This document shows positions 4,891 through 57,826 of a stretch of DNA of 64,000 nucleotides, one piece after another. Made by a program: the position numbers and the translations under genes. Below the pieces are notes generated by a model, which saw only the letters and a program-made list of their open reading frames with translations, made no database searches and was not told the DNA's origin. The number at the start of each line of letters is the position of its first letter. The stretch's first letter is position 1. This DNA is from Seinonella peptonophila (GTDB lineage Bacteria > Bacillota > Bacilli > Thermoactinomycetales > Thermoactinomycetaceae): positions 58,106-122,105 of the forward strand of contig NZ_FQVL01000007.1 of NCBI RefSeq assembly GCF_900129355.1, written 5' to 3'.

Positions 4891-4945
4891 TGGTCAAGGA
4901 GATTAATTAAGGTATAATACACTTGAAAGAGTATGGATCGAAACG

Positions 4946-5589: not shown

Positions 5590-5693
5590 ATTTTTAAATA
5601 TGTATTATTTTTGTTGAACCGTCCATTGCTATTTCAAAGATAATTGGATCACAATATTCAATGTCAGGATAATTGTAGTATTTTGTGTGTCAA

Positions 5694-5742
5694 CTCACTC
5701 GTAACGATGGGGTCACAGGTTCAAATCCTGTTGTCAGCACCA
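5694..5742 (+). repeat. tRNA 3'-half-like att site copy 2
   Basis: near-identical to 3921-3967; begins a roughly 320-bp segment (5692-6015) about 95% identical to 3905-4235. Confidence 0.5.
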
Positions 5743-5944
5743 GCCTACCCTTGTATAGCAAGTATTTTTTTGTGTTTTATTGATTGCTATTTTCAAATAC
5801 AAAACTTTGAGATCTGGATTAACTAGCAACCAATCGTGACACAATTGATTATTGAAATTGAGGGTTATGGTTTACAAGCATTGCTCCATGGAAAATGTCA
5901 AGATAGTCATGAATTATGTAAGAAGTTTTTTCAAACATTACGAA

Positions 5945-6215
5945 CTTGCATGGTAACGAGGATTTTCTTCACGTCTTTTTTAGGGATCATCAGTTTTGAA
6001 CGTACAAAGGCGCCTCCTTTAGGAGCAATCTCAATCAAATTCTTCGTTTGAAGTCGAAGTAATGCCGTTCGAATGGTCGTGCGACTTACATTCATTTCTT
6101 CAGCTAATATACGCTCTGCTGGAAGGCGTTGTCCAGCAGCAAATACTCCTTGGATAATATCAGCTTCAATTTTATTTACTACCTCGTCGAGTTTTTGATT
6201 GTTGTGTCATCGTAT
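5945..6215 (-). pseudogene. YtrA-type GntR-family regulator, copy ii, frameshifted near the start
   Basis: minus-strand VVNKIEADIIQGVFAAGQRLPAERILAEEMNVSRTTIRTALLRLQTKNLIEIAPKGGAFVRSK... (GntR HTH); the ATG-led frame MTQQSKTRRGSK* is out of frame with the HTH. Confidence 0.5.
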
Positions 6216-6227
6216 TACCACACATTG

Positions 6228-6400
6228 AACGTAAGTTATCGGATAAACGCTTTTTCTGCTTGGGCAAAATAATCTTTAATACGGATACGTTGTGCTGGAT
6301 GCATATCGACTTCAGCCAGTTCACTTTGTGTAAAAAAACGCAGTTGAGTGGATTCTGAACTTACGGATAGCTCGCCGCCAATAATCATGCTATTAAGGAA
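6228..6400 (-). pseudogene. Nudix hydrolase C-terminal fragment (copy ii)
   Basis: GGELSVSSESTQLRFFTQSELAEVDMHPAQRIRIKDYFAQAEKAFIR* nearly identical to the C-terminus of 8494-8874. Confidence 0.45.
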
Positions 6401-6807
6401 TCAAAGGGGATCGTTGAGAGGAACACCGAATCTTGTACCAAATACTATCCGAACGTAAACAGCAGCTAACGAGAGTTTAATAGGCAAAAGTTCCATACAT
6501 CACGTTTATATGAGTTTTAATGCTTCTTTGATGAGCTTCAAGAGTGGTAATCTCTAACGTTTGTTTTGCAGTAGTTTTGAAATTTATCGTACATCTTGTT
6601 TACTGAAATTAGGTGCAAAATGCCTGCTTTTTATTATAATTAATGGTGGTTTATGCGTTTTGCATAAGTTGAAGCCAAGTGTGCGCAGGGAGCGGGACTA
6701 GACGTATGTGGTGAATACGAGGTGACAGATTGAGTTGCCGGAAGGATAAGCCTCGTAGCTTTGAGCAATAAAAGCGGTGAAATGAACATCATAGAGGAGG
6801 CGACAGT

Positions 6808-8124: not shown

Positions 8125-8131
8125 AATAAAT

Positions 8132-8165
8132 AAAGCCGTTTCTTGATTAGGAATCGGCTTTTTCT
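8132..8165 (+). terminator. rho-independent terminator (AAGCCG...CGGCTT + TTTT)
   Basis: hairpin plus T-run read directly from the sequence. Confidence 0.45.
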
Positions 8166-8212
8166 AAATTTCCTTATTTGCACCTGTTAACTGAAATTCA
8201 TCCCCAAATTTA

Positions 8213-8446
8213 TCAACCAGTTGATAACCAGCGAGAGAGACGCTTGATGTCACTAATGACTAAAATGGTTGATGCGTCTCCTCTAGGAATCATCTCAATC
8301 AAATTCTTCGCTTGCAGTCGAAGTAATGCCGTTCGAATGGTCGCGCGACTTACATTCATTTCTTCAGCTAATATACGTACTGCTGGAAGTCGCTGTCCAG
8401 CATTATATAACCTTTGGATCATATCCAATTTTATCGGATATCTCAT
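8213..8446 (-). pseudogene. YtrA-type GntR regulator, copy iii (HTH frame runs from an internal Met; upstream ATG-led frame MTQQSKIDEISDKIGYDPKVI* is shifted)
   Basis: LYNAGQRLPAVRILAEEMNVSRATIRTALLRLQAKNLIE GntR HTH; frameshift between the N-terminal leader and the HTH. Confidence 0.45.
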
Positions 8447-8493
8447 CGATTTTTGATTGTTGTGTCATCGTATCACCACACATTGAACGTAAG

Positions 8494-8874
8494 TTATCGG
8501 ATAAACGCTTTTTCTGCTTGGGCAAAATAATCTTTAATACGGATACGTTGTGCTGGGTGTATATCGACTTCAGCCAGTTCATTTTGTGTAAAAAAACACA
8601 GTTGAGTGGATTCGGAACTTACGGATAGCTCTCCGCCAGTAATCATGCAGGCAAAACAGATTGAGAACTGTTGTCGAACTTCTCCATCAGAATAGGCAAT
8701 GATATGGTTTAGATCAGTATAGATGCCGACACAACCTGTTACTTGGACATTCAATCCACTTTCTTCGTTCACTTCAAGTATGATTGTATTTTCAATCGAC
8801 TCTTCTAACTTGTGATTCGTGTGTCGGCATATACGGCGATCGATGACTTTTACGAAGGATAAATAAGTTAACAC
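8494..8874 (-). pseudogene. Nudix-like hydrolase, N-terminally truncated with a degenerate Nudix box
   Basis: LEESIENTIILEVNEESGL resembles the Nudix box (GX5EX7REUXEEXGU) but has GG->HT and R->L; stop codon immediately upstream of the first Met. Confidence 0.4.
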
Positions 8875-9212: not shown

Positions 9213-10010
9213 ATGAAGCGTTTTACTCTCATGGAGATGTTCCCGGCGTTCTCCAATCCTCAGGAGCTGGATCACCGTCAGATCGAGCTGCTCCAGCTCT
9301 GCGCCCAGATCGGTGTTCCGTTCCCTGCCGAGCGGAACAAGTCATACGGCACCTGGTGGCACTCTCTCCACGAGATCGGTCACTGGGCTGTCAAGCCTGA
9401 CTGGTACATCCAGTACTCGTCGTACCTGCTGGACGACCTCGCGACGACCTGGGGTGTTCTCAAGATCCCTGCCGGCACGGTGAAAGGGATCGACTACCCG
9501 ATCATGCTTCCCAAGATCGGGCGGTACGTCGGGGGCAACGATGTCATCCCGGAGATCGGCATGTACAACAAGACCGACCCGACCCCGGGAGAACACGAAA
9601 CCCGCGTCTGGGCTCTCCAGTACCTTGAACTGAAGGGCTGGAATCACCCGTTCGACGACAACACCAAAAAGATCACGACGGGAGACGAGTTCTTCCACAA
9701 GCCGGCTTCGGCCAGGGTCTGGGCTACGCCTCAGATCAACGATCCGGAAATCTGCACCAAGATGGCATGGTGGGGACTGAACGTCCCTGAAGGTCAGTTC
9801 CGCCCGGCCGAGGACGAGGAGTTCGTCCTGCCATATCCCACTCCTGTGAACCACCAGGAGATGGTAGCCAACATGGACGCCATCACGTCCCACTACGGTG
9901 GGAAGGTGCTGAAGTCCGACGAGAGGTCTTACTGGCTTGCCTACCTCAGGAGGAGGTGGCCCGAGAAGGACCTCGTGAAGAGGTACTTGCGGATCGCTAA
10001 GGCCGCCTAG
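9213..10010 (+). CDS. hypothetical HEXXH-motif protein (putative zinc hydrolase) on a roughly 60% GC island
   Basis: GAGGAAGGA RBS; WWHSLHEIGHWAVKPD contains HExxH...D; very high GC3; terminator follows. Confidence 0.55.
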   Translation: MKRFTLMEMFPAFSNPQELDHRQIELLQLCAQIGVPFPAERNKSYGTWWHSLHEIGHWAVKPDWYIQYSSYLLDDLATTWGVLKIPAGTVKGIDYPIMLPKIGRYVGGNDVIPEIGMYNKTDPTPGEHETRVWALQYLELKGWNHPFDDNTKKITTGDEFFHKPASARVWATPQINDPEICTKMAWWGLNVPEGQFRPAEDEEFVLPYPTPVNHQEMVANMDAITSHYGGKVLKSDERSYWLAYLRRRWPEKDLVKRYLRIAKAA

Positions 10011-14607: not shown

Positions 14608-14833
14608 TCGTTGCTCAGTTTGTAGAAAAAGGTAGTGGTTCTGTCAATCTTTCACGCTTCGACTCCTTTTTAGGATGTGTAGCTGTCTTCAAGGCGCCTT
14701 GAAAGTTGCTCCCTACTGAGATATTGACTCCATGATTTCCTTGTAATCGAACAAAAGTTTCATTGCCCACTCCTCTGTTTTTCGGTGCAAAGGAGTAGGC
14801 AATGTCGTTTCAAGAGCGACATATACAAAAATC

Positions 14834-29009: not shown

Positions 29010-29258
29010 CCCTATGACGAGTGAGAAGGGACGGCAAAATTCCATATCAGACAAACAACTAGTGGAATGGCGCTGAAGCAGTAGTTTCTCATCGGGCAAA
29101 CGGTTCGAGTCTCCGCTAAGCGTACACCAGAGAGGAGAGTTTTGCCGGGTCAAGAAAGCTGACAGAATGTGACAGCAGACACATGTTTGTAAGACCAGAT
29201 CGGGGATTCGCTGTGAACCACGATTACGAGCAGATCACACGACTTTATTTACAAGCTG
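29010..29258 (+). repeat. intergenic repeat family A, copy A1 (upstream of catalase)
   Basis: shares GGGCAAAC(G/T)GTTCGAGTCTCC...GAGTTTTGCC(C/G)G...GAACC(A/G)CGAT...TTTRTCTACAAG with 41084-41365 and 55075-55345. Confidence 0.5.
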
Positions 29259-29298
29259 GGAAAATAAGAAAAGCATCTAAAAATCGATAAATCATGCT

Positions 29299-32558: not shown

Positions 32559-32886
32559 ATGAAGGGTGATAGAACACGACAGCTCTACTTCCTAGAAGGC
32601 CTGGATCGGAGCGTTGCCGTGAAGCACGATCACGTGCTGGTCTCGCTTTGTCACCATCTTTTTCTCACATATTGAAAAGTATAGACCGATTCCGCCTTAT
32701 CGATTGGGGATCAGTGGATTCAGTTAGCATGAAAATTCCGCTGTTAGGTAGATCTGGTATGATAGGGCAGTAGGTCAAGTGGAGTTTGATATTATTCCTA
32801 ATATTATGCAAATTACCTCCGGAGCCTGGCACTCCGTAAAGCGCCAGTTCCGACACCCCGTGTGAAAGGAGGGTGTCATGGGTGGG

Positions 32887-33486
32887 TCAGTGGTGCTCGT
32901 TCAGCAGCATCACGATCGCGGCGAGCAGGTTCGCCTGAAGGGAGGCCCGCTTCCCCTGCGGGGCGTACGTGCCCTGCCCCTGAAGGCCCTTCCGGAGGTC
33001 CACCAGGATCCCGCCGATCGTGTCGAGCTGGCCAGCGATCGCCTTCGACGCGGGGGACTTCTTGATCTCGGAGATGATCTCCCTCGCGCGGTTCAGGTTC
33101 CTGAGGGACTCCTGCTTCTTCTCCTTGCTGACGCTGACGTCCAGCTTGGCGAGGAGGGAGAGCAGCGTGATCAGCCGGCTCGCCTCGGTTTCCTGCGGCG
33201 GCAGCTCGGCCTGGATGGCGGCGACCTGGTTGTCCGTCAGCTTCAGCATGTCGCTCTGCAGCAGGATGATGAACAGGTGACCGATGGCGTCCAGGTCGAT
33301 CTTGTCGCCGTCGGTCTTCTCCGTGGCGAGCTGCTTCGTCGTGGAGGACTGGTTCTGCGAGACCTCCTGCATCTTCGACGAGACGTCGCTCGGCAGCTCC
33401 AGCACCCCGGCGGCGATGAGGAAGAGGGTCAGCTCCAGGTTCCTGATCATGTCGGACTTGCTGAGCTGCTGGTTCGAGTGGGTCAT
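32887..33486 (-). CDS. hypothetical protein (199 aa) with roughly 65% GC, actinobacterial-like codon usage
   Basis: GC3 near-saturated on this strand; AAGGAG RBS before the ATG; the opposite-strand and other-frame ORFs are R/G/P/L-rich artefacts. Confidence 0.6.
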   Translation of the reverse strand: MTHSNQQLSKSDMIRNLELTLFLIAAGVLELPSDVSSKMQEVSQNQSSTTKQLATEKTDGDKIDLDAIGHLFIILLQSDMLKLTDNQVAAIQAELPPQETEASRLITLLSLLAKLDVSVSKEKKQESLRNLNRAREIISEIKKSPASKAIAGQLDTIGGILVDLRKGLQGQGTYAPQGKRASLQANLLAAIVMLLNEHH

Positions 33487-33752
33487 GTGCACTCCTTGCT
33501 TGAGCACCATTCACTTCCTACCTTAAAAGGCAGGTGGCTTCTCGGATGAAGCACCTGAATGGTTCGATAAAATTATCATATCATGAAAAAAGATAATTGT
33601 GCTAGAAGATATAAAACTGGGATTATATTCAATACATGAAGTATAGCGTTTAAAGTACAAGAAACGTTTTCGTTCGGAAATCTAATGTTTTATACTCCAT
33701 ACCTTTAGAATTAATTTATATACCGAATATTCATATCAGATCAATTCATTGA

Positions 33753-35967: not shown

Positions 35968-36327
35968 TCCAGACTGAAGAAAAACCAATATTTTGGTTAA
36001 AAATCATGGAAAATAAAGCATGTTTAAAGGAGGAAATGCTTTGCAATCTAGCCCGACTTTCAGGCACTACCAAGCCACGACTGTGTAGCGAAGAATAGAT
36101 GGTAGTACTGTCTGCGCACGCCGTGCACAAGTTTCGCTAAGCAGCTAACGCTGCAAGTCTCACTATGACGCGATAGCCGAGTTGATACCACCCTGAGCGA
36201 GCAGTCGTGGCGCCTTGAATACTTCTATGCAGCCTGAACTGGAGGCATCCATCTTTTTTTCAATAACACGGAGTGCATAAAGCTTGACTCACAGAAATGA
36301 AGGCGACTTATACTTTGTCCACAAGCT
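35968..36327 (+). mobile_element. repeat family B copy B1, about 360 bp non-coding element inserted in a terminator hairpin and flanked by 26-bp direct duplications (35942-35967 and 36328-36353: AAACCTCCGTTCAAATAACGGAGGTT)
   Basis: about 85% identical core to 56467-56827; no ORF; flanking hairpin duplicated. Confidence 0.5.
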
Positions 36328-41083: not shown

Positions 41084-41365
41084 TTCAGACTGACGAGAAA
41101 CACTAACGAGTGAGTGTAGAGATAATCGGCAAAGCTTTATTTCGGGCGCAACATAGTTCAATGACAACTGAAGCGGCATTTTCTTCTTGGGAAAACTGTT
41201 CGAGTCTCCTCAGGCACATGTCGAAGAAGTCGAGTTTTGCCCGATTGTGAAGGCTAACAGAAGCGAAGGCCCACATCCTGGAGGACCCGGTCGCGGAACA
41301 TCGCCGAGAACCGCGATCAAATGACTTTGTCTACAAGTTGGTGAGCCCCAAGGGCTCTTTTTTTA
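41084..41365 (+). repeat. intergenic repeat family A, copy A2, ending in a terminator hairpin (GAGCCCcaaGGGCTC + T7)
   Basis: homologous to 29010-29258 and 55075-55345; shares left end TTCAGACTGAcGAgAAAC with family B. Confidence 0.5.
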
Positions 41366-44548: not shown

Positions 44549-44624
44549 CGCGGGGTGGGGCAATTGGTAGCCCGTCGGGCTCATAACCCGAAGGTCGCAG
44601 GTTCAAATCCTGTCCCCGCAACCA
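44549..44624 (+). tRNA. initiator tRNA-fMet (CAT) with a C1-A72 mismatch
   Basis: CGCGGGG...CTCATAACCCGAAGGTCGCAGGTTCAAATCCTGTCCCCGCAACCA; closely matches bacterial tRNAfMet with three G-C pairs in the anticodon stem. Confidence 0.85.
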
Positions 44625-44628
44625 ATAT

Positions 44629-44705
44629 GGCGGTGTAGCTCAGTAGGCTAGAGCGTACGGTTCATACCCGTAAGGTCAGGGGTTCGAGGCCCTTCACCGC
44701 TACCA
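44629..44705 (+). tRNA. elongator tRNA-Met (CAT)
   Basis: GGCGGTGTAGCTCAG...ACGGTTCATACCCGT...GGTTCGAGGCCC...CGCTACCA. Confidence 0.8.
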
Positions 44706-44709
44706 AACA

Positions 44710-44758
44710 GGCGAAGGCGAGGAAGGCTCTGTGATCTGAGCTCGCCTTCGCTTTTTTG
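44710..44758 (+). terminator. rho-independent terminator after the tRNA pair
   Basis: GCGAAGGCGAG...CTCGCCTTCGC + T6. Confidence 0.7.
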
Positions 44759-45005
44759 TTTGCCAAATGATGCGTTTTCACTTTATTATGCAGAACTTAT
44801 CATAAACTACATAAAAAATCAGATTTGACTGAATCAGTTCAATCTTGATTCGAACATGACTACAAACCAAACTTGATTGAGCCATATACTGGGGATAGCC
44901 CTTTTGATCAATATTTAGTTGTTTTCTTATCATTTTCATAAAAGCATGATCCGAAGCAATGTAGCTTATAATAGAAATGTTTTATTGGGGTATAGGAGTG
45001 GTCAT

Positions 45006-45500
45006 GTGAATGTTTCAATCAAAAAAGTGAAATTTACAACGATCAATAAAACGTATACTGAACAGGTCCGGGATTGGCGTGGTCGTAACTGTTTTTCCAC
45101 TCAATATCCCAATCCAGATGGGAAGCGGATTTTCTTAACCTACTATTTTGTACGTAAAGGTTATACCATATCGAAAGTATTTCGACGTTCAGGGGAATTT
45201 CTTTATTATTATTGTGATGTGATGGAAATGAAACAAGTGGGTCGATTGCGCTATGTAATGGTTGATTTATTATTCGACCTCATTGTCCGTCCTGATCACA
45301 GCTATCAATTAATCGATATTGATGAGTTTGCAGACGCATTGGAAAAAGGTGTTTTAAAGAGAAGACAACAAATTCATGCTTTAAGAACACTTGATCATAT
45401 GATTCAACTTCAATCCCAAAGAAAATTAATACCCGCATTTATCCATGATGCGAATATGTATATGATTCATGGAGAAACACAGTCATCTCACAAAAAGTGA
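45006..45500 (+). CDS. hypothetical protein (about 165 aa), GTG start with AGGAG RBS
   Basis: ORF at the position where B. subtilis has yabR, but no S1 domain is evident. Confidence 0.45.
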   Translation: MNVSIKKVKFTTINKTYTEQVRDWRGRNCFSTQYPNPDGKRIFLTYYFVRKGYTISKVFRRSGEFLYYYCDVMEMKQVGRLRYVMVDLLFDLIVRPDHSYQLIDIDEFADALEKGVLKRRQQIHALRTLDHMIQLQSQRKLIPAFIHDANMYMIHGETQSSHKK

Positions 45501-45903
45501 TGACTGTTTTTTTATGCGTATGAATAGAATGCCAGATGTTGGAATTTCATACAAACGTTTGTCGTTATCTCAGTTTTTACAGACTGATCCGACAGAGTCA
45601 GACGGAAAGTATGTGATTTCTCTAGTGAAAAAGGAGGGTCTATATGTTCGTTTTATAGGTATCTAAAGTGATGACCATACTTTTGATCTGTCGAATCTTT
45701 TTTTTCATACATAAGTAATTATGACAAACTTTTCCTGGCACACTCGTTATAATGATGTTCACACCTACGGAGTCGATCTTCTTGAAGAGGGCCAGAATGC
45801 GGATTAAGCATAAATTGATATAAAATCTTCTCTTTGTTCGAAGCCGAATCAAAAGAGTTCGAATCGACCCGTTTGGTTTTAGATAATAAAAGAGAGGGTG
45901 GCA

Positions 45904-48354
45904 ATGTTGGAAGCGATTCAACCAAAAAAGAAACGGGGGCGAGGAGAATGGTGGCTAAGGCTACAGCATGTATGTAGTAACAAAATGAATCGCCTGATCC
46001 AAGTATATAATCTTCCAGTACTACTTATGGGGTTTTTACTCGGACGAGCAACCATTTTAGAGAGCGTCTCTCCTTTTGCGATTGCATATTTAGCAGTTGT
46101 CATGTATTTGGCAAAGAAACAATGGCCATCAGTGATGTTGTTTTTGGTCATGGGTAGTGCAACAGTCGATTGGATGCATGTAGCGAAGATATCCGTTTTT
46201 CTCATTCTCTTTGTCTTATTTCATCGAATCTTTCTTTGGTTTCATAAGGACCAGATTCATTTAGCTCCATTATTAGTCGCAATCAGCAGCATCATAGGGC
46301 AATGTGGATGGAGTTGGTATGAGGGTTGGACTGTTTATCAACTTATGTTAGCAGGTGTTGATTTATTACTAAGTGTGATTTTAACATTTATTTTTGTTCA
46401 CTCTCTACCGATTTTTACCATGCGAAAGAAACGGGTTTTTCTTCGTCCTGATGAAATTATTTGTTTGATTATCCTATTAGGTTCTGTTATCACAGGGATG
46501 CTGGAATGGCAAATCGAACAGTTATCCATTGTCAATATCATATCAAGATATCTAATTTGTCTATTTGCATTTGTAGGTGGAGGGATGTTAGGAGCATCAA
46601 TTGGCGTTGTCATTGGAATGACAATTTGTTTATCCGATCCAAAATCGATGATTCAAATGGGTTTGTTAACCTTTGCTGGACTTATGGCAGGCTTATTTCA
46701 AGAAGGAAAACGTTTTGGTTCCATGATTGGTTTTTTGCTGGGTTCCACTATTTTATCCCTCTTTCAAATGGGGACAGATCAGTTGTTGTTGTCCCTATGT
46801 GAGACAAGCATTGCGTTAGGTTTATTCCTACTCACTCCGAGTTCCTGGGTTCACGCATTTGCTCGCTATGTACCTGGAACCCCAGAGAACCAAACGTTGC
46901 ATCAGGATTATGTGCGGCGATTACGTGATGTAACTGCGGCAAAAGTAGATCATTTTGCCGAATTATTCAGTGAGTTAGCAGTTAGCTTTCGTGAAGATTC
47001 GGGGAAAAAAAAGAGAGAGGACGAGGAGCAACTACATCACTTTGTTCAAGGTGTGATGGAAGAAAGTTGCTTTGGTTGTAAACGATATCGGCACTGTTGG
47101 GACCAAAATCTGATGCGCACGTATCAGGAAATCACAGGATTAATGGCATGGGTAGAAGCGGATGCAGAAGGAGTGCCAAGTCACTGGTCACGCTACTGTA
47201 TTCATTCAGAAAAAGTATTACAAGAAGTTCGCATCCAATATCAAAGGGAACGGGAACAGCATTTATGGAAAGAACAGTTAAAAGAGACAAAAAGGATGGT
47301 TGGGACGCAGTTGATGGGTATGTCTGAGGTGATGGAACGGTTATCCACTGAGATTCGGCATGAGACAAAGGTATTGACGGCACAGGAGGAGCAGATCCAT
47401 GAATCATTAGAAGAACTTGGACTTTCCATTCAACGTGTTGATGTGATCAACTTAGAGGAGGGAAGAGTTGAAATTGAGGTAACTATGCCTCATCGGGATG
47501 CTTTTGATGAGTGTAGAAAATTGATAGCTCCTTTATTAACTGAGATTTTAGGAGAGCCGATTGCTGTTTATCGGAAAGTCATCAAAGGACATTCGAGCGG
47601 ATCATTAATTACGCTAGGTTCGGAACAGCGTTACACATTAAAGACAGGAGTTGCCCATGCAGCGAAAGGTGGACGCTATATTTCTGGTGATAGTTATTGC
47701 TATATGAATCTAGGAACGGGGAAATATGCAGTTGCTCTAAGTGACGGTATGGGAAATGGCCAGCGTGCGCAGGAAGAAAGTAGTGCAGCGCTCAAACTGT
47801 TGAAGAGGCTCCTGCAAGCGGGGATGAAAGAAGAGACTGCCGTTGAAACGGTCAATTCCATATTAAGTTTGCGCTCAGCTGATGAAATTTTTGCAACTAT
47901 TGACTTGGCTTTAGTAGATTTGCATACAGCGGCTGGTCGCTTTATGAAGATTGGTTCGACACCAGGGTTTATTAAACGGGGCAAAGAAGTATTTATGGTT
48001 TCCAGCGAGAGCCCGCCGATCGGGATCTTGAGCCATATTCAGGTAGAGCCGGTAGAGATGCGTTTGCGTTCAGGTGATTTATTAATTATGATGACAGATG
48101 GCGTTTATGATGCCCCGAGGCATGTTCTGAATAAAGATGCCTTTATGACACGAATGATTTCTGAAATTGAGACTCGTGATCCTCAAGACTTTGCTGATTG
48201 CTTGCTCGAAGCCGTGGTTCGATATCATCAGGGTGCGATTCATGATGATATGACAGTAATTGTCTCAAAACTGGAACGGTATACGCCAGAATGGTCAACC
48301 ATTCGATTACCTGGTATGGCTAGATTGGAAAGAACACAAGTAGCACTTTCTTAA
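45904..48354 (+). CDS. spoIIE: stage II sporulation protein E (PP2C phosphatase)
   Basis: 10-TM N-terminal domain plus C-terminal PP2C (GDSYCYMNLGTGKYAVALSDGMGNG). Confidence 0.9.
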   Translation: MLEAIQPKKKRGRGEWWLRLQHVCSNKMNRLIQVYNLPVLLMGFLLGRATILESVSPFAIAYLAVVMYLAKKQWPSVMLFLVMGSATVDWMHVAKISVFLILFVLFHRIFLWFHKDQIHLAPLLVAISSIIGQCGWSWYEGWTVYQLMLAGVDLLLSVILTFIFVHSLPIFTMRKKRVFLRPDEIICLIILLGSVITGMLEWQIEQLSIVNIISRYLICLFAFVGGGMLGASIGVVIGMTICLSDPKSMIQMGLLTFAGLMAGLFQEGKRFGSMIGFLLGSTILSLFQMGTDQLLLSLCETSIALGLFLLTPSSWVHAFARYVPGTPENQTLHQDYVRRLRDVTAAKVDHFAELFSELAVSFREDSGKKKREDEEQLHHFVQGVMEESCFGCKRYRHCWDQNLMRTYQEITGLMAWVEADAEGVPSHWSRYCIHSEKVLQEVRIQYQREREQHLWKEQLKETKRMVGTQLMGMSEVMERLSTEIRHETKVLTAQEEQIHESLEELGLSIQRVDVINLEEGRVEIEVTMPHRDAFDECRKLIAPLLTEILGEPIAVYRKVIKGHSSGSLITLGSEQRYTLKTGVAHAAKGGRYISGDSYCYMNLGTGKYAVALSDGMGNGQRAQEESSAALKLLKRLLQAGMKEETAVETVNSILSLRSADEIFATIDLALVDLHTAAGRFMKIGSTPGFIKRGKEVFMVSSESPPIGILSHIQVEPVEMRLRSGDLLIMMTDGVYDAPRHVLNKDAFMTRMISEIETRDPQDFADCLLEAVVRYHQGAIHDDMTVIVSKLERYTPEWSTIRLPGMARLERTQVALS

Positions 48355-48451
48355 TAAGTGCTTGTTCTATGAAGGGAAATGGTATAAAATATCATCATCT
48401 TAACTGTGTATTTGGGTTGATCGAGTCTACTCACTGAAGGGAAGAAAATGA

Positions 48452-49861
48452 TTGTTTCTCGATCGTTTACAGACAGCGATTCGTGAATATTCGCTTATAG
48501 ATGAGGGGGAGCGGGTTCTGGTCGGTGTATCCGGTGGACCCGACTCCATCGCATTGTTACACGGGCTCCACCAGTTGCGCGAAATTGGTCAGTGGAGCCT
48601 CTTTGTCATACATGTCAATCACTCTTTGCGGGGTGAGGAGAGCGATCAGGATGCCCGATATGTAACCCAATTTTGTCAGCAACGGCAGATTCCCTGTCAC
48701 ACAGTCAGAATTGATGTTTCAATGGAGGTGAAACAGAAAAAGGGGAATTTGCAGGCAGTAGCACGTGAACTTCGCTATGAACAGTTTCGAAAAGTAGCAA
48801 AGCAACTTAACATTACAAAACTAGCTCTTGCTCATCATGCGGATGACCAAGTAGAAACATTATTGATGCGTCTGCTTCGTGGAACAGGCATTCAAGGTCT
48901 AAGTGGAATTCATTGGACATATACATGGCAGGAACTTACAATTGTTCGCCCATTACTCGCCATACAAAGGCAACTAATTGAAGCGTATTGCGATGAGCAG
49001 AAGCTTTTTCCAAGATTTGATTCAAGCAATGAATCGTTGCACTATACTCGAAATCGGATTCGTAAAGAGCTTGTTCCGTTACTACTAACGTATAATCCAC
49101 GTGTAAAAGAAGCATTTATACAGTTAAGTCAGTTAGCTCAAACAGAAGAAGAAATGTGGCAATCCTTAGTGGCCGAAGCGATGAAAAAACATGTGAAGCA
49201 ACAGGGTGCATATACATATCGGATTCATGTAGAATCATTTCTTCACCTACCCGTTGCTTTACAAAGAAGAGTAGTTAAACTAATATTAAATTGTCTTGTG
49301 AAAAACGGAACAAGCGAAGTATCGCTGGAAATGGTAGAACAGGTGAGAAAAGTTCTTCATCACCATCTTCCATCGGTAAAAATCTCCCTCCCACATGGTT
49401 TAGTCGCTTACAGAGAGTATGAATCCTGTTTGATATCAATGCAAAGTGCTAAGCACCATCAGGATCATACGATGAAAAAAATTTTGATCCCTGGTGTTAC
49501 AAAGTTACCAGAATTTGATGGTGAATTAGAAGTGAAGCTGCTTGCTACACTGCCGTATAGGACCGAAGATAATACCCAAGCGGTCTTTGATGCAGATCAA
49601 ATGTGTGGATCGCTTTTTGTGCGTAGTCGTCGACCTGGAGACCGTATGTATTGTCAAGGGATGAAAGGGAGAAAACGTTTAAAAGATTTGCTGATGGAGG
49701 CTAAAATTCCCGCAGCCAACCGGGATCAGCAACCCATCGTCACCTTTGAAGATGAAGTCATTTGGGTGCCAGGTGTGCGTTGCTCCAAAATTGCAGCGCC
49801 TTCCTCCAAAACAAGGCGCTATCTCTATCTAACTTGGCGTAAGTATGGGAAGGGTAGGTGA
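48452..49861 (+). CDS. tilS: tRNA(Ile)-lysidine synthetase
   Basis: PP-loop VGVSGGPDSIAL; conserved position before hpt. Confidence 0.9.
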   Translation: MFLDRLQTAIREYSLIDEGERVLVGVSGGPDSIALLHGLHQLREIGQWSLFVIHVNHSLRGEESDQDARYVTQFCQQRQIPCHTVRIDVSMEVKQKKGNLQAVARELRYEQFRKVAKQLNITKLALAHHADDQVETLLMRLLRGTGIQGLSGIHWTYTWQELTIVRPLLAIQRQLIEAYCDEQKLFPRFDSSNESLHYTRNRIRKELVPLLLTYNPRVKEAFIQLSQLAQTEEEMWQSLVAEAMKKHVKQQGAYTYRIHVESFLHLPVALQRRVVKLILNCLVKNGTSEVSLEMVEQVRKVLHHHLPSVKISLPHGLVAYREYESCLISMQSAKHHQDHTMKKILIPGVTKLPEFDGELEVKLLATLPYRTEDNTQAVFDADQMCGSLFVRSRRPGDRMYCQGMKGRKRLKDLLMEAKIPAANRDQQPIVTFEDEVIWVPGVRCSKIAAPSSKTRRYLYLTWRKYGKGR

Positions 49862-49974
49862 CGAACTGTTACTTGAGATACATAGGAAGGTATATTTCGG
49901 TCACTTCTTGTGGATAGTGGTACTATACGCCCTAAATGAAAAACAGTTCTATGTACTTTGGTAGCAGGCATACC

Positions 49975-50517
49975 ATGAATCGAGATATTGAGAAAGTCTT
50001 ATTCACCAAGCAGCAAATTGAGGAGAGATTGGCAGAATTAGGGGCGCAACTTGCAGAGGAATACCATGGCAAAAAGCCATTATGTATTTGTATCTTAAAA
50101 GGAGCTGTTCCTTTCCTGTCCGCTCTGATCCAACAGATTGAAATACCATTAGAAATCGATTTTATGTCCGTTACCAGCTATGGAAGTTCCGCGAAATCTT
50201 CTGGGGTTGTACGCATTATGAAAGATTTGGATATATCGATTGAAGGGCGTCATGTACTCATTGTAGAAGATATCATTGATACTGGCTTAACACTGCGACA
50301 TTTAGTCGACCTGTTGGAACAGCGAAACCCTGCATCTGTCAAAACAGTAGCGCTACTGGATAAATCGATCTGTCGCACTGCTGATATAGAGGCGAATTAT
50401 GTAGGGTTTGAAGTACCGAATGAGTTTATTGTCGGCTTTGGATTGGATTATGATGAACAATATAGGAATTTACCTTATATTGGTGTCTTAAAAAAGGAAG
50501 TCTATCATATAGGGTAA
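49975..50517 (+). CDS. hpt: hypoxanthine-guanine phosphoribosyltransferase
   Basis: [18 protein letters not shown] motif; start chosen by homology (upstream alternative 49936). Confidence 0.85.
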
Positions 50518-50550
50518 AATATTTTTATGTGAACTGAGAGGAGGCCAAGG

Positions 50551-52518
50551 ATGAAACACTTCTTCCTCAGGAACGGGATACTATATATCATTCTCATCCT
50601 TGTAACCCTTGGGGTTGTAAATATGGTGGCGAACTCGGGAACAGAGACTTCGCAGCTTACTTATACTCAATATAGACAGCAGTTACAAGCTGGCAAGATT
50701 GCAGAAGTGACGGTTCGTGCTGAGGGAAATACTTATCATATTGAGGGTAAATACAAAGGAAAGCCTGAGAGATCATTTGTCACCCAAGGACCGATGTATG
50801 AAGGAAGTACTGTCGTTCAAGACTTGGATCATGCAAAAACAACGAAGGTAACTTTTGAGAAACAGAAGAGTGACTCCGTTTGGCTAACATTTTTTACATC
50901 GATCATACCTTTTGTGATCATTTTACTCTTGTTCTTCTTCCTGCTTAACCAAGCGCAGGGCGGCGGAAGCAGAGTGATGAACTTTGGTAAAAGCAAAGCG
51001 AAGCTCTATAATGAAGATAAGAAACGAGTCACCTTTGATGATGTAGCAGGTGCTGATGAAGAGAAGGCAGAGCTTGTAGAGGTAGTTGATTTCCTAAAAG
51101 ATAATCGACGATTTGCAGCGATTGGTGCGCGGATTCCAAAAGGTGTCTTGCTTGTGGGTCCTCCTGGTACAGGTAAAACTTTACTTGCACGCGCAGTCGC
51201 TGGAGAGGCAAAGGTACCTTTCTTCTCCATTAGTGGATCGGACTTTGTAGAAATGTTTGTCGGTGTAGGTGCTTCAAGGGTTCGTGATCTTTTTGAACAG
51301 GCGAAGAAGAATGCACCATGTATTATCTTTATTGATGAGATAGATGCTGTAGGTCGTCAGCGTGGCGCTGGACTCGGTGGTGGTCACGATGAACGTGAGC
51401 AAACATTGAACCAATTGCTCGTCGAAATGGATGGCTTTGATGCAAATGCTGGAATCATCATCATGGCTGCAACAAACCGCCCAGATATTCTCGACCCTGC
51501 ATTATTACGCCCCGGTCGTTTTGATCGTCAAATTTTGGTCAATCGTCCGGATGTGAAAGGACGCGAAGAAGTTCTTCGTGTTCATGCTCGAAATAAACCA
51601 ATCTCCAAGCGTGTGAAGTTGAGTGTTATCGCTCAACGTACCACTGGTTTCTCAGGCGCCGACTTGGAAAACTTGTTGAATGAAGCTGCTCTCTTGGCCG
51701 CTCGATTTAATAAGAAAGAGATCGGTATGGAAGAGATCGATGAAGCGATTGATCGCGTGATTGCTGGACCTCAAAAGAAAAGTCGGGTGATCTCTGAGAA
51801 AGAACGGCAGATTGTTGCCTATCATGAATCTGGTCATGTGTTAGCTGGATATTATTGTGAGAATGCGGATACAGTTCATAAAGTAACCATTGTTCCACGT
51901 GGGCAAGCTGGCGGTTATGCAATGATGTTGCCTAAAGAAGATCGTTACTTAGCTACCAAAAGTGAACTGCTTGATCGCGTAACAGGCTTACTCGGTGGTC
52001 GTGTTGCCGAAGATGTCGTCTTTGGTGAAGTAAGTACAGGGGCGAGTAATGATTTTGAGAAGGCGACAGCGATTGTCCGTGCCATGATCACAGAGTATGG
52101 AATGAGTAAACGATTGGCAACGATGCAATTTGGTCGTTCTCAAGGTCAAGTTTTCCTCGGTCGCGATCTAGGACATGAGCAGAACTATAGTGAAGAAGTT
52201 GCACGGCTGATTGATGAAGAGATGCAAGAGCTGATTCAAGAATGCTACGATCGTGCAAAAAGGTTGTTGACAGAGCATCGTGATAAGTTGGAATTAATGG
52301 CTCAAACACTGCTGAAGCGTGAAACATTAGATGAAAATCAAATTAAACAGCTTTTGGAGACAGGTGAGCTAAAAGACGACTTAGAAGATGAAGATGTAGT
52401 AGTAAATATTAAAGGTAAAGAAGATCGCAACGATGAAGTGAAAGAGACAACAGACGATACAGAGCCAGCCGATTCTGATCGTGAGTCAACCCATGAAGAG
52501 AAGAAAAATAACGATTAA
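50551..52518 (+). CDS. ftsH: ATP-dependent zinc metalloprotease FtsH
   Basis: GPPGTGKT Walker A, SRH, HESGHV HEXXH. Confidence 0.95.
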
Positions 52519-52584
52519 TTGGGTTCACAATCTGGCACTCCAGGCCTGGGGTGCTATTTTTTATGTATAGGAAGGGTGGTATCT

Positions 52585-53367
52585 ATGCTATTTGTAATCG
52601 ATGTAGGCAATACAAATATTGTATTAGGAATTTATCGGGAACGTGAATTGGTCTATCATTGGCGCATTCATACAGATCGTGAAGCGACTGAAGATGAATA
52701 TGCAATGCTGATCAAAAATTTACTGCAAGATGTTCATTTAAAATGGGGCAATATAAAAGGTGTTGCGATCTCATCAGTCGTACCACCACTCACCTATGTA
52801 CTTCGTAAATGGTCAGAAAAATATCTTTCGATTGACCCGATTGTGCTAGAACCTGGTGTAAAAACGGGAATGAATATATTATATGACTCTCCACGTGATG
52901 TAGGGGCAGATCGGATTGTAAATGCAGTCGCTGCCAGCGAAAAATTTGGAGGCCCTGTTATTATCGTAGACTTTGGGACGGCTACAACTTTTTGTCTTGT
53001 TGATGAACATAAGAATTATCGAGGAGGGATTATTGCTCCTGGGATTCATGTCTCGTTAGAAGCTTTAGTCTCACGCACGGCAAAGCTGCCCCGTGTTGAA
53101 GTAGCTAGGCCAGAAGAAGTGGTCGGTCGGAATACGATCAATGCGATGCAGTCAGGGCTTTATTATGGATATGTAGGGTCGGTAGATGGGGTTGTCAATC
53201 GGATTAAGCAAACATTGACAAAGAAGCCAACTGTTGTTGCTACTGGTGGGTTGGCCCGTTTGATAGCAGAGGATGCCGATACCATTGATTATATCGAGCC
53301 TTGGCTTACTTTAGAAGGGTTGCGACTGATCTATGAAAGAAATAGAGGTGAACAAGAAAATGTCTAG
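52585..53367 (+). CDS. coaX: type III pantothenate kinase
   Basis: MLFVIDVGNTNIVLG...; ASKHA fold. Confidence 0.9.
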   Translation: MLFVIDVGNTNIVLGIYRERELVYHWRIHTDREATEDEYAMLIKNLLQDVHLKWGNIKGVAISSVVPPLTYVLRKWSEKYLSIDPIVLEPGVKTGMNILYDSPRDVGADRIVNAVAASEKFGGPVIIVDFGTATTFCLVDEHKNYRGGIIAPGIHVSLEALVSRTAKLPRVEVARPEEVVGRNTINAMQSGLYYGYVGSVDGVVNRIKQTLTKKPTVVATGGLARLIAEDADTIDYIEPWLTLEGLRLIYERNRGEQENV

Positions 53368-54229
53368 TTATATTGTTCGTGCGATTGCTCGAAACGGTGA
53401 AGTTCGTGCTTTTGCTGCGGAAACACGTTCACTCGTACAGGAGGCAGTCAATCGCCATCTCACATTCCCTGTAGCAAGCGCTGCATTGGGGCGCACTTTA
53501 ACGATGGGTGCCATTTGGAGTGCGATCTTAAAAGAAGAGCAAGAAGTGGTGACAATCAGGGTTGAGGGTGATGGTCCACTTGGCAAGGTGATCGTACATG
53601 CCAATGGAGCTGGTGAAGTTCGCGGATTAGTTGATGAGCCACAGATTGAAGTGCCCAACTATCCAGATGGTAAATTAAATGTAGCAGCGGCTGTAGGTCA
53701 GGGAATGATCCATATCTCAAAAGATATTGGCTTACGGGAGCCTTACCAAGGTAGCTCGCCTATTGTTTCAGGTGAATTGGCTGAGGATTTCACTTATTAT
53801 TTTACCACATCAGAGCAGACGCCTTCTTCTGTAGGACTTGGTATCTTGGTACAGAGAGAACAGATTCTACAAGCTGGTGGGTATCTACTTCAAGTATTAC
53901 CTCAAGCGACAGATGAGACGATCTCCCGCTTAGAAGAGCGAATCAGTCAGCTCACGTCGATCACCGATTTTTATCAGCAAGGAGGCTCGCCAGAGAAGCT
54001 ATTGGAACACATACTTGGCGAAAATCTAAATTTCTTATCACAAACAGAAGTAACATTCTCGTGTCGGTGTTCGAATGAGAGCGTGGCAAATATGTTACGA
54101 AGTCTAGGGAAGAAAGAAATCCAATCGATTATAGACGAAATCGGCTATGCAGAGGTAACCTGCCACTTCTGCAATGAAAAGTATCATTTTGATCAAACAC
54201 AGTTGTTGCAGTTGATTGATCAACCTTAA
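53360..54229 (+). CDS. hslO: redox-regulated chaperone Hsp33
   Basis: C-terminal CRCS...CHFC zinc centre. Confidence 0.9.
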   Translation: MSSYIVRAIARNGEVRAFAAETRSLVQEAVNRHLTFPVASAALGRTLTMGAIWSAILKEEQEVVTIRVEGDGPLGKVIVHANGAGEVRGLVDEPQIEVPNYPDGKLNVAAAVGQGMIHISKDIGLREPYQGSSPIVSGELAEDFTYYFTTSEQTPSSVGLGILVQREQILQAGGYLLQVLPQATDETISRLEERISQLTSITDFYQQGGSPEKLLEHILGENLNFLSQTEVTFSCRCSNESVANMLRSLGKKEIQSIIDEIGYAEVTCHFCNEKYHFDQTQLLQLIDQP

Positions 54230-54293
54230 AATGACGGACACGCCCGCCGCTCCGAAGAGCGGGGGCGTGCCGTGACCCGGGGTTGTGGGAGGG

Positions 54294-54668
54294 TCAGTCC
54301 TCGGCGTTGTCCTCGTCGGCCGGTCGCATCTTCACGGCGACGACGATCCCGATGGCGAACAGGATGAACAGGAAGGGGAACTGGCTGACGATCGCGCCGG
54401 CGTAGAAGCCGAGCAGCGCCATGCCCGGACGCCACTTCTTGACGAACAGCTCCAGCTTCGTGGCGAAGTGCCCGCCGACGGTGCTCTGCTGCTCCATCTT
54501 CTTGGAGATGCGCACGGCGGCGAAGAGCACACAGAGGGCGAAGAGCGCGGGGACTCCGATGACGACCGTCATCATGAAGCTGTCAAACCCGATGAGCAGG
54601 CCGATGAGGGTGGTCCCGATGCTCACTGAGGTGGCGGCGCTCGGACGGAGGAAGGACGATTTGGACAT
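54294..54668 (-). CDS. hypothetical small membrane protein on a roughly 62% GC island between hslO and cysK
   Basis: three hydrophobic helices; the only frame in this GC-rich stretch with protein-like composition; GC-rich terminator hairpin at 54245-54275. Confidence 0.45.
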   Translation of the reverse strand: MSKSSFLRPSAATSVSIGTTLIGLLIGFDSFMMTVVIGVPALFALCVLFAAVRISKKMEQQSTVGGHFATKLELFVKKWRPGMALLGFYAGAIVSQFPFLFILFAIGIVVAVKMRPADEDNAED

Positions 54669-55074
54669 GACTTTCCCTTTCGGGTTTGCTGCCACAGGCA
54701 GTTACGAACGGAATCTGATTCTGTTCGGTAGCTTCACTAGGGATCTAGCGAATTCACCTTGTAAATGCTCCAATCTGGACAAGGTGAAAAGGGCAACTAC
54801 CTACTTGATTTCAACATAGCATGTGGATAAGGATGATGCAAGTTACAAGGAGCAGTAGATGGTTCGGAGGATAGAATTTCTAGGTCTTAACTAAGAAGTC
54901 CGTTTGAAGCAATGAGCAAACGAGGTAGCACATTTGTGATCGGATTGCGCCTGCATATTTGTAATTTTTCATCATGCTTGACCACCCCCTACGTATGAAA
55001 TGCGGGGGATGCTTATGTAATCTCTCACAACTGAGAGAAATCGAATCAATTAAGCGTGCATCCGACGTTATAAA

Positions 55075-55345
55075 TTCAGCTTGAAGAAAACCCCTTAAAC
55101 GAGTGGAGAGGTAATCGGCAAAGCTCCATTTCGGGCGCAACTTAGCGGAATGGCAGCTGAAGCGGTATTTTCCTTACGGGCAAACTGTTCAAGTCTCCGC
55201 AGGCGGATGCCGGAGGAGGCGAGTTTTGCCCGACCACAAAAGCTGTCAGAACGCGGACAGATTCACATCCTTGCAAGCCCGGGTCGGAGCAAAGCCGTAA
55301 GCCACGATCACGAGCCGCCGATCACGGAGCTTTGTCTACACTCTG
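55075..55345 (+). repeat. intergenic repeat family A, copy A3 (upstream of cysK)
   Basis: homologous to A1/A2; shares the TTCAGcTTGAAGAAAAC left end. Confidence 0.5.
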
Positions 55346-55494
55346 GTTATAAATAATTGTGTAAACGAAACTGACAAAGGGAAGAAAAAAAGAGATCGAT
55401 CTGTTGAGAGAAGTTGCTTGACAGTTGTGGATGGACATTGATAAGATAATATATAAAATCCTATATGATTAATAGGAATAGGAGGAATCACTCC

Positions 55495-56424
55495 ATGACA
55501 ATCGCAAATAATATATTGGAATTAATTGGCCGTACACCTAGCGTTCGATTAAATCGAATTGTTGGGAAATCGGATGCAGATGTATATTTAAAGCTTGAGT
55601 TTTTTAATCCTGGGGGCAGTGTAAAAGATCGGATTGCTTATAGTATGATTCATGAAGCTGAGCAACGGGGTGACTTAAAACCCGGTGATGTAATCGTTGA
55701 ACCGACAAGCGGAAATACGGGAATTGGTTTAGCTTTGGTAGCAGCAGCAAAGGGCTATCGGACCATTTTGGTTATGCCAGATACCATGAGTTTAGAAAGA
55801 AGAAATCTATTACGTGCATATGGAGCGGAATTATACTTAACTCCTGGTTCAGAGGGAATGAAAGGGGCAGTTGCCAAGGCAGAGCAACTAGCGAAAGAGA
55901 ATGACAATTATTTTCTACCTCAGCAATTTAAAAATCCAGATAATGTAAAGATTCATTTTGAAACAACTGCGCAAGAGATTGTTGAAGATTTTGGCGACCA
56001 ATTAGATGCATTTGTAGCAGGAGTAGGAACAGGTGGAACGATCACAGGTGTTGGTCGTGTCTTAAAAGATAAAATCCCCAATGTTCAAATCATCGCTGTT
56101 GAACCAAGCGCATCACCTATCTTGCAAGGCGGCACACCTGGACCACATAAGATTCAAGGAATTGGTGCTAATTTCGTACCCGATATTTTGGATACAGAAA
56201 TTTATCAGGAAATAATCGGAATTGATAATGAAGAGGCATTCGAATGGGCGCGTAAGTTGGCTCGTGAAGAGGGGATTTTAGGTGGAATATCGACTGGGGC
56301 TGCTGTAGCGGCGGCAGTTCGGATTGCTCGTCGATTGGGTGAAGGAAAGAAAGTGCTTGCTGTAGCCCCAAGTAATGGTGAACGTTACCTCAGCACACCT
56401 TTGTATCAGTTTGATACTGAATAA
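55495..56424 (+). CDS. cysK: cysteine synthase A (O-acetylserine sulfhydrylase)
   Basis: [12 protein letters not shown]-lysine motif; AGGAGG RBS. Confidence 0.9.
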
Positions 56425-56466
56425 TGTTAGAAAACCATTAAAGCATCTAACATGTTTACGCTAGGT

Positions 56467-56827
56467 TTCAGACTGATGAAAAATCCAATTGATGAAATGA
56501 AGAGGTTCGTACAATTGGGTAGAAGAAGAAATCGTGGAGTCAATATTTCGCTGCGGGCGGAAAAATACTCCTTAACCCGCATTTTACTAGGCGCTACCAA
56601 GCCACGACTGTGTAACGAAGAATAGTCAGTAGTACTGTCTGCACACGCCATGCACAAGTTTCGCTAAGCAGCTAACGCGCTGCAAGTCTCACTATGACGA
56701 GGTAGCCAAGTTGATACCGCCCTGAGTGAGCAGTCATGGCGCCTTGAAGACATCAACGCATCCTGAAATGGAGGCGAAGCGTGAAATATTGACGGAACCT
56801 TTACTTTATCTACTAATAGACACTTAG
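56467..56827 (+). mobile_element. repeat family B copy B2 inserted in the cysK terminator; flanked by a duplicated CATGTTTACGCTAGGT (56451-56466 and 56828-56843)
   Basis: core homologous to 35968-36327; the right-hand copy of the duplication is followed by TGTTTTTT, giving an intact terminator. Confidence 0.5.
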
Positions 56828-56977
56828 CATGTTTACGCTAGGTGTTTTTTGCTGTGCAAATATGAATCTAGTTAATCTTCAATTTTTAAATCTGAGGCCA
56901 AGAAATAGTTTTTCATGATGAATGAAATAAGGTATATTAAGAGCACTTGAATAACTTTTCTATGGTTCGGTAGGTGT

Positions 56978-57826
56978 GTGGAATTGCAACGAGTGATCAA
57001 AACAGGGAAATATCAATTACCAATTGGTGAGCGGACATTGGTAATGGGCATATTAAATGTAACACCTGATTCTTTTTCTGATGGTGGAAAGTATTTAGCG
57101 CCTGAAGCAGCGGTGGCACATGCGATGCAGATGGTGAAAGAGGGGGCAGATATCATCGATATAGGCGGTGAATCGACTCGTCCGGGGCATCAATCTGTCT
57201 CCTTAGACGAAGAGTTAGCGAGAGTGATTCCGATTGTGCAAGCTGTAGCAGATACGATTCAAGTGCCGATCTCCATCGATACGTATAAAGCGAGCGTGGC
57301 AAAAGAGGCGATAGAAGCAGGTGCGAGCATAATCAATGATGTTTGGGGCGGAAAGTATGACCCAGAAATGAGAAAAGTAGCTGCAAAGCTCGATGTTCCG
57401 ATGATTTTCATGCATAATCGATCAAATACAGTCTATTCATCCATGATGAAAGAGATCAAACAAGAATTGCTAGAATCTGTAAACACTTATCTTCAAGCAG
57501 GTGGTCGTGAAGAGCATGTGATTCTTGATCCAGGGATAGGTTTTGCAAAAGGGTACCACGGGGATCTGCATGTGATGAAACATCTTGAGCAGATCGTTGC
57601 CTTAGGGTATCCTGTTTTGCTTGGAACCTCTCGTAAATCGATGATTGGGAAGACCTTGGATTTGCCACCAGAGCAGCGACTAGAAGGTACTGCGGCGACT
57701 GTAGCATTAGGGATTGCAAAAGGGTGTCACATTGTCCGTGTACATGATGTAAAGGAGATGGTACGCGTTTGTCGGATGATGGATGCAATGTTGAATAATG
57801 ATTGGGGTGAAACGCTTGACAGTTAG
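56978..57826 (+). CDS. folP: dihydropteroate synthase
   Basis: LVMGILNVTPDSFSDGG. Confidence 0.9.
   Translation: MELQRVIKTGKYQLPIGERTLVMGILNVTPDSFSDGGKYLAPEAAVAHAMQMVKEGADIIDIGGESTRPGHQSVSLDEELARVIPIVQAVADTIQVPISIDTYKASVAKEAIEAGASIINDVWGGKYDPEMRKVAAKLDVPMIFMHNRSNTVYSSMMKEIKQELLESVNTYLQAGGREEHVILDPGIGFAKGYHGDLHVMKHLEQIVALGYPVLLGTSRKSMIGKTLDLPPEQRLEGTAATVALGIAKGCHIVRVHDVKEMVRVCRMMDAMLNNDWGETLDS

Follow-up and report, generated by a model that had tools for sequence, protein, structure and literature searches.

Why does a gene-sized block of GC-rich DNA stand between hslO and cysK, two housekeeping genes of a low-GC chromosome, and how could it have arrived there? The question is raised by a 64,000-nucleotide stretch of the Seinonella peptonophila genome (contig NZ_FQVL01000007.1, positions 58,106 to 122,105; this whole stretch is called the window below), in which a reading made from the letters alone (the sequence-only reading) had numbered several GC-rich islands and had described the one at 54230-54720, island 5, as a foreign insertion into a conserved interval. 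Our analysis indicates that island 5 is probably an islet of a single gene with the build of a phage moron, which arrived recently from a high-GC mobile gene pool and has not yet ameliorated. Its composition is foreign, its reading frame has coding periodicity, it ends in a hairpin, it is absent from relatives, its junctions are real and its product is an orphan.

The segment 54230-54720 has a GC content of 63.3%, in line with the figure of about 62% given earlier for the DNA between hslO and cysK, whereas the window as a whole averages 39.5%; measured on all 491-nt sub-windows, the difference amounts to z = 3.9. Only 0.35% of these sub-windows are equally GC-rich, and they are confined to 9.2-10.0 kb, 32.7-33.6 kb and 54230-54720. 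The left edge is sharp, with GC rising from 0.37 to 0.80 at 54240, 10 nt past the hslO stop codon; the right edge is the start codon of the island gene at 54668, and past 54669 GC lies at 0.40-0.50. The islet is approximately 470 bp long, is oriented opposite to the core genes and is made up as follows:

54238..54700, no strand: high-GC islet (terminator, coding sequence and ribosome-binding site), 63-65% GC versus 39.5% in the window, with its sharp left edge at 54240
54294..54668, minus strand: coding sequence of a 124-aa orphan protein, as judged from GC content at third codon positions (GC3, 0.93), three-base periodicity, hydropathy and an all-helical AlphaFold model
54674..54680, minus strand: Shine-Dalgarno-like AAAGGGA, 5 nt before the ATG, read from sequence
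54234..54273, minus strand: GC-rich hairpin, then GUCCGUCAUUUU, the loop being UUCG when read in the sense of the gene, from RNA folding
54286..54296, minus strand: TGACCCTCCCA, comprising the TGA stop codon and a C-rich tail; the window has one other exact copy, likewise at the stop codon of a minus-strand island gene

The minus-strand open reading frame (ORF), which runs for 124 codons from the ATG (54668..54294), shows a three-base periodicity that was matched by none of 20000 shuffles, and its GC contents at the first, second and third codon positions (GC1, GC2 and GC3) are 0.56, 0.42 and 0.93. Ten neighbouring core genes, in contrast, have GC3 values of 0.28-0.40 (0.35 overall). The codon choice is typical of a GC-saturated genome: AAG accounts for 6 of 7 lysines and ATC for 9 of 9 isoleucines, leucine is encoded exclusively by CTC and CTG, and C-ending codons are favoured. 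A competing plus-strand frame makes use of the same wobble positions, but one third of the periodic stretch lies outside it, and it overruns that stretch by 150 nt. Because this frame covers the periodicity incompletely and has a GC1 lower than its GC2, we take the minus-strand ORF, which is also the frame annotated by NCBI, to be the coding one.

The predicted product is a basic protein of 124 residues (pI 9.3) with two long hydrophobic blocks, at residues 14-53 and 82-114, which would correspond to three to four helices; a 28-residue lysine-rich basic loop separates the blocks, and the C-terminal tail is acidic. The sequence-only reading had proposed a 124-aa minus-strand membrane protein with three helices, of which the ORF, the strand and the membrane character hold, while the helix count is three to four rather than strictly three. 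A single-sequence AlphaFold model is all-helical and of low confidence (predicted local distance difference test, pLDDT, 67; predicted template modelling score, pTM, 0.33).

Searches with this protein returned only the protein itself, both from 5.8 billion protein clusters (word-indexed search) and from 1.84 billion representatives (full HMMER search with phmmer). There was no match in PHROG, PADLOC or NCBIfam, among PDB sequences, or in GenBank phages and PLSDB plasmids, the latter two searched by tblastn and blastn. Pfam gave nothing at curated cut-offs; below threshold were YxzE (0.022), DUF6542 (0.094) and DUF2070, and the first two look like effects of transmembrane composition. The gene caller behind the Logan assembly (contig L087, run SRR5187778) took an antisense 114-aa ORF on island 5 instead (L087 9689-10033, corresponding to window 54285-54629, plus strand), so that GC-saturated foreign genes in low-GC contigs can reach protein databases in the wrong frame, and statements of absence made from proteins alone are thereby weakened. 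Since gene-calling errors could explain the absence from protein databases, we added DNA-level scans of IMG/VR and JGI metagenome contigs that do not rely on gene calls, and these revealed no relative of island 5 either.

Past the TGA stop codon of the gene lies a C-rich stretch and then the hairpin at 54234-54273, a near-perfect 17-bp GC stem closed by a tetraloop, with a folding free energy of -41.1 kcal/mol (z = -5.0; 0 of 200 shuffles as stable). A GC-rich hairpin at the hslO end had been noticed before, and the letters quoted for it lie at 54241-54267, inside the full stem. The plus-strand fold is equally stable, lacks the U tract and begins 5 nt past the hslO stop codon. The hairpin is probably the terminator of the island gene itself. 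An additional small stem is predicted in which TGACCC of the stop-codon motif pairs with GGGTCA at 54274-54279.

The surroundings of the islet are defined by the following features:

53360..54229, plus strand: hslO (Hsp33 chaperone), left flank; Pfam HSP33, 1.3e-97; the ATG at 53360 is also the start in the Logan gene call on L087
55495..56424, plus strand: cysK (cysteine synthase), right flank; Pfam PALP, 3.7e-84; 75-79% identical to the cysK of relatives
54230..55417, no strand: whole Seinonella-specific insertion, approximately 1.19 kb, from the hslO stop codon to the ancestral cysK promoter (spacer in relatives 73-313 bp)
55418..55485, plus strand: ancestral cysK control region with -35 TTGACA, -10 TAAGAT and the box AAATCCTA...GGAATAGGAGG; promoter scan 10/12

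Upstream of hslO, CoaX and FtsH were also confirmed by Pfam, and the gene order is ftsH, coaX, hslO, cysK, folP; the HSP33 and PALP matches on the two flanks bear out the placement of the islet in the core hslO-cysK interval, which measures 1265 bp in the window. We compared this interval with that of the closest genomes available, nine Thermoactinomycetaceae (Lihuaxuella, Hazenella, two Thermoactinomyces, two Thermoflavimicrobium, two Laceyella and Polycladospora), whose HslO proteins are 55-63% identical. In all nine, only 73-313 bp separate the hslO stop codon from cysK, and this short spacer holds a TTGACA/-10 promoter and a conserved box; the same promoter-box module is retained in the window at 55418-55485. 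The short spacers of the nine relatives thus indicate that 54230-55417 is specific to the Seinonella lineage. The check proposed with the sequence-only reading, a comparison of the interval across relatives, therefore finds the gene absent from the site in 9 of 9 cases, and composition and short spacers together uphold its claim of a foreign insertion into a conserved interval. Among 80 hslO loci searched by tblastn, none encodes a relative of the island 5 protein.

The insertion is larger than the islet. It consists of the GC-rich islet, a spacer of approximately 400 bp at 44% GC and one copy of a repeat of approximately 260 nt; the roughly 770 bp of extra lineage-specific non-coding DNA between the islet and cysK, with its two dispersed repeats, had been missed in the earlier account. 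As side effects of the insertion, a very stable hairpin now lies 5 nt past the hslO stop codon and the cysK promoter lies 1.19 kb from hslO. In the window (55455-55485) and in loci L001-L009, the ribosome-binding site of cysK and the conserved box, AAATCCTA-N(9-13)-CGGAATAGGAGG, overlap; the box probably acts as a regulatory operator or leader element of that gene.

Island 5 is not the only such gene in the window. A systematic scan for ORFs with a GC3 of at least 0.70 returned three, those of islands 2, 4 and 5 (GC3 0.82-0.96), all of them intact; islands 1 and 3 are milder (0.52 and 0.62) and different in look, island 3 encoding a multi-pass membrane protein. Island 4 (32887-33510, minus strand, GC3 0.96) encodes a K/E/Q/L-rich protein of 199-207 aa that is also an orphan, with no family match and no homologue in 5.8e9 clusters; its neighbours are an SPFH/Band-7 gene, a CAAX-protease-like gene and a partial copy of the approximately 260-nt repeat. 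For island 2 (9213-10010, plus strand, GC3 0.82), 22 homologues were found in metagenomes. One of these lies at native GC in a 91.7-kb, 62.6% GC phage-like contig, where it adjoins an FtsK/SpoIIIE-like gene (phrog_31069, 2.8e-92) and is near a tail-fibre gene. Three others, like the gene in Seinonella, stand out as GC-rich patches of one or two genes against chromosomal surroundings of lower GC, namely with a type I restriction-modification system, with Mrp/Nuo-type antiporter genes and with metabolic genes. By blastn, the island 2 loci are similar in nucleotide sequence as far as the coding sequence reaches and no farther, and flanks common to these loci, at which a MAFFT alignment had hinted, are thereby ruled out. 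The island 2 family provides the best available evidence on the origin of such islands, and it bears on island 5 by analogy only.

In the explanation that we prefer, the DNA that came to lie downstream of hslO and ahead of the promoter of cysK is a module of approximately 470 bp comprising a Shine-Dalgarno-like site, the 124-codon ORF and its own hairpin terminator. The GC3 of 93% and the codon choice suggest a donor gene pool of approximately 65-70% GC or more, the likeliest source being a phage, or a mobile element of another kind, from high-GC bacteria, and such a source would explain the lack of a known homologue. The composition has not drifted toward the host GC3 of 0.35, which points to a recent arrival. 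Integration may have taken place by illegitimate, recombinase-independent joining, for example by capture of a fragment at a double-strand break, since the islet is unaccompanied by any att site, repeat, duplication or mobility gene. If expressed, the product would be a small basic protein with three to four membrane helices, possibly of the type found among accessory membrane proteins of phages and plasmids, such as exclusion, immunity or holin-like proteins.

Several points weigh against this scheme. As no donor or homologue is known, the phage or mobile-element origin rests on the analogy with island 2 and on composition. The protein is also less GC-driven than a typical protein of a 70% GC genome, as indicated by its share of lysine among lysine and arginine (K/(K+R) = 0.64), its GC1 of 0.56 and its GC2 of 0.42; the phage-like contig L082 is fairly lysine-rich too (0.41). 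The best minus-strand promoter candidate upstream of the gene scores 8/12 and is 300 nt away; as no sigma-70-like promoter is recognisable there, expression is the least secure part of the scheme. Finally, the fragment fits one gene and its signals almost exactly, which is not obviously the outcome of random DNA capture.

Among known systems, island 5 resembles in its anatomy the phage moron (Hendrix and Juhala), a supernumerary unit of one gene that has a terminator of its own and a deviant composition and is inserted between phage genes. The likeness extends to the single ORF, the terminator hairpin, a composition unlike that of both neighbours, tight gene-sized boundaries and the lack of a mobility gene. 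Unlike a moron, island 5 lies between housekeeping genes of the chromosome and not in a prophage, and a scan for sigma-70-like sites recognised no promoter belonging to it. Small membrane proteins of phages and plasmids (holins, superinfection-exclusion and immunity proteins) resemble its product in size (124 aa), in having three to four helices and in carrying a charged C-terminal tail. It differs from them in other respects: there is no holin, PHROG or Pfam match and no adjacent endolysin or toxin gene, and the tail is acidic, not basic.

By composition and phyletic criteria, island 5 is a horizontally acquired islet or ORFan, with moron-like anatomy. It shares with such genes, in which amelioration is understood in the sense of Lawrence and Ochman, an atypical composition and codon usage, absence from the syntenic site of relatives, a short length, restriction to one lineage and the lack of homologues. 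Other marks of acquired islets, a donor lineage or homologues and an association with tRNA or mobility genes, are not found in island 5; the nearest tRNAs are approximately 10 kb away, at 44.5 kb. Island 5 stands in an origin-proximal block of core genes rather than at a tRNA or in a large island. ORFans and acquired genes are usually AT-richer than the host, being 'shorter and AT-richer' in E. coli (PMC3514957; also PMC2275313), whereas island 5 is 24 points GC-richer than its host and nearly saturated in GC3. Our literature search found no report on GC-rich islets in Thermoactinomycetaceae; the Seinonella genome literature that it returned concerns only a diphtheria-toxin-like protein with homologues also in Streptomyces (PMC9018708). 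Taken alone, island 5 is one more horizontally gained orphan gene, and it is uninformative until a homologue or an expression datum is at hand. It is mildly notable for being GC-rich against the AT-rich rule, and for its clean insertion into a conserved housekeeping block without mobility machinery.

The alternative that survives best is that the islet is inert captured DNA, intact-looking but unexpressed and functionless in Seinonella, and as yet uneroded by mutation. We consider this unlikely, but it stays a serious rival because no sigma-70-like promoter (at least 9/12) is recognisable on the minus strand within 330 nt upstream of the gene, in a scan that was limited to this promoter type. 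It would also agree with an orphan that bears no sign of selection, with a wholly unameliorated composition that implies a very recent arrival, and with a location in a spacer that has accumulated dispersed repeats as well. Nevertheless, the ORF is complete and has both a Shine-Dalgarno-like site and a terminator, the boundaries of the fragment match one gene, and three such islands occur in 64 kb, all of them with intact ORFs; moreover, the promoter scan addressed sigma-70-like sites only.

A second alternative would make the GC-rich islands cassettes of a common site-specific system, integron-like or new, with the motif TGACCCNCCCA as part of the recombination site. This motif consists of the TGA stop codon of the island gene and eight C-rich bases and is found in islands 4 and 5 only; it is present exactly twice in the window, on the minus strand in each case (54286-54296 and 32879-32889), against an expectation of 0.05 copies. 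A match in the same register at the two stop codons arose by chance in 13 of 20000 trials. In addition, every island is one gene with tight boundaries, and solitary members of the island 2 family turn up in unrelated genomes. The pattern was, however, derived from the same two sequences on which its chance was estimated, and a match anywhere in the two 60-nt tails was obtained in 78 of 2000 shuffles. Furthermore, neither island 2 nor the 86 loci retrieved from other genomes contain TGACCCNCCCA, its lone match among retrieved loci (in L087) being the window's own copy in the Logan assembly. At best, TGACCCNCCCA may be a signature of a shared donor with C-rich, G-poor 3' tails, rather than a recombination site.

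Signs of mobility are also lacking. Integron core sites (GTTRRRY/RYYYAAC) do not occur within 54215-54310 or 54650-54780, and Pfam revealed no integrase, recombinase or transposase among the 33 window ORFs scanned, a set that does not cover all ORFs of the window. The islands have no target-site duplication, terminal inverted repeats or common flanks, nor are there notable flanking direct or inverted 8-mers. They are single genes scattered on both strands, not an array, and, as noted above, the nucleotide sequences of island 2 loci resemble one another only within the coding sequence. An integron gene cassette does resemble island 5 in pairing a single, apparently promoterless ORF with a structured element at its 3' end, but island 5 lacks attC architecture, core sites, IntI, attI and an array, and its hairpin is terminator-like, unlike attC. 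We thus judge a common cassette system to be highly improbable. The sequence-only reading had taken the shared 3' motif as a hint of a common, possibly cassette-like, insertion mechanism: the sharing itself stands, as two exact copies, while the mechanism is not supported, given the missing core sites, common flanks, duplications, inverted repeats and array, and the lack of a recombinase among the ORFs scanned. Identity as an integron, an insertion sequence, a miniature inverted-repeat transposable element (MITE) or a transposon was likewise rejected, since core sites, inverted repeats and a duplication are missing, the ORFs scanned include no transposase and the single ORF encodes a membrane protein.

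A third alternative, that reads of a high-GC contaminant were misjoined into the contig, is suggested by the extreme composition, the lack of a homologue and the single genome available for the species. Yet Logan contig L087, which extends from upstream of spoIIE through ftsH, coaX, hslO and the entire islet into the spacer, matches window 44597-55143 over its 10547 bp with 0 mismatches and spans both islet junctions, and island 2 is likewise reproduced in the Logan assembly. This identity across the junctions makes a chimera specific to one assembler very unlikely. The RefSeq and Logan assemblies were probably built from the same reads, so that their independence is incomplete; on the other hand, the insert falls precisely between two genes and is itself bounded like a gene, and three separate islands would each require such an accident. 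An assembly or contamination artefact is consequently extremely improbable in our view.

Lastly, a native gene or yacD remnant made GC-rich by local selection or mutation bias, a thought prompted by the PpiC-type, yacD-like rotamase gene that more distant Bacillales (Paenibacillus, Sporosarcina) hold in the hslO-cysK interval, is effectively refuted, as the gene is absent from all nine Thermoactinomycetaceae relatives, no similarity to yacD was found in the window, YacD is a rotamase/SurA-N domain protein encoded on the hslO/cysK strand whereas the island 5 protein is dissimilar and on the opposite strand, and no known process lifts GC3 from 0.35 to 0.93 in a 375-nt patch.

Having preferred a recently acquired, moron-like islet, one may ask whether island 5 belongs to something broader. 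Many units the size of a gene might pass from a high-GC phage or mobile pool into low-GC chromosomes and settle there without a recombinase, repeat or att site, and island 5 would then be one of them; we regard this wider proposition as improbable. It would draw on the presence of three such units (islands 2, 4 and 5) in 64 kb, and on the island 2 family, which is known as a solitary GC-rich gene from at least three further, unrelated settings of lower GC and, at native GC, from the phage-like contig. If true, it would imply an unrecognised route of single-gene capture, for instance end-joining of phage-derived fragments, or alternatively a minimal mobile unit that has so far escaped recognition, for which the stop-proximal TGA-CCCNCCCA would be a signature of the donor or of processing. 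Were the Seinonella genome peppered with such inserts, it would be a good natural system in which to follow the entry of gene-sized foreign fragments into bacterial chromosomes, as well as the exchange of high-GC phage genes across the Actinobacteria-Firmicutes divide in soil.

Between the islet and the cysK control region, three further features were recorded:

54705..54727, no strand: near-perfect palindrome CGAACGGAAT-ctg-ATTCTGTTCG, read from sequence, preceding the island gene by 37-59 nt
54977..55044, no strand: 68-nt stretch of a host dispersed repeat, an inverted match to 4832-4898 (blastn, 76% over 68 nt, E = 2.5e-7)
55085..55350, plus strand: copy of the approximately 260-nt dispersed repeat; other copies at 29017-29262 and 41095-41345, partial copy at 32571-32637

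The palindrome may be an operator-like or hairpin element. The copies of the approximately 260-nt repeat are 73-82% identical, and the full ones lie on the plus strand just upstream of catalase, yabN/mazG and cysK. A long extended stem is predicted for this repeat, which matches no Rfam family and whose 31-base consensus pattern has no match in metagenome contigs; it could be a MITE-like element or a leader RNA of a kind not yet described. The spacer 54690-55420 as a whole has no match in plasmids or phages and no Rfam family even at E <=1.

A second dispersed intergenic repeat, of approximately 190 nt, occurs at 36062-36246 and 56589-56775, with an inverted partial copy at 14629-14702 (copies 88-92% identical). 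One copy lies directly after cysK, and 56400-57000 gave no Rfam match. Farther away, the region 3900-8700 consists of tandem segments of approximately 1.8-2.3 kb that are 82-98% identical, and islands 1 and 2 lie in or beside it. Two of the segments contain a 53-nt piece resembling a tRNA 3' half (3917-3969 and 5692-5744) and no intact tRNA is present there; the arrangement looks like stacked remnants of att sites of integrated elements. At 44549-44705, upstream of spoIIE, ARAGORN identified two adjacent genes for tRNA-Met (CAT anticodon).

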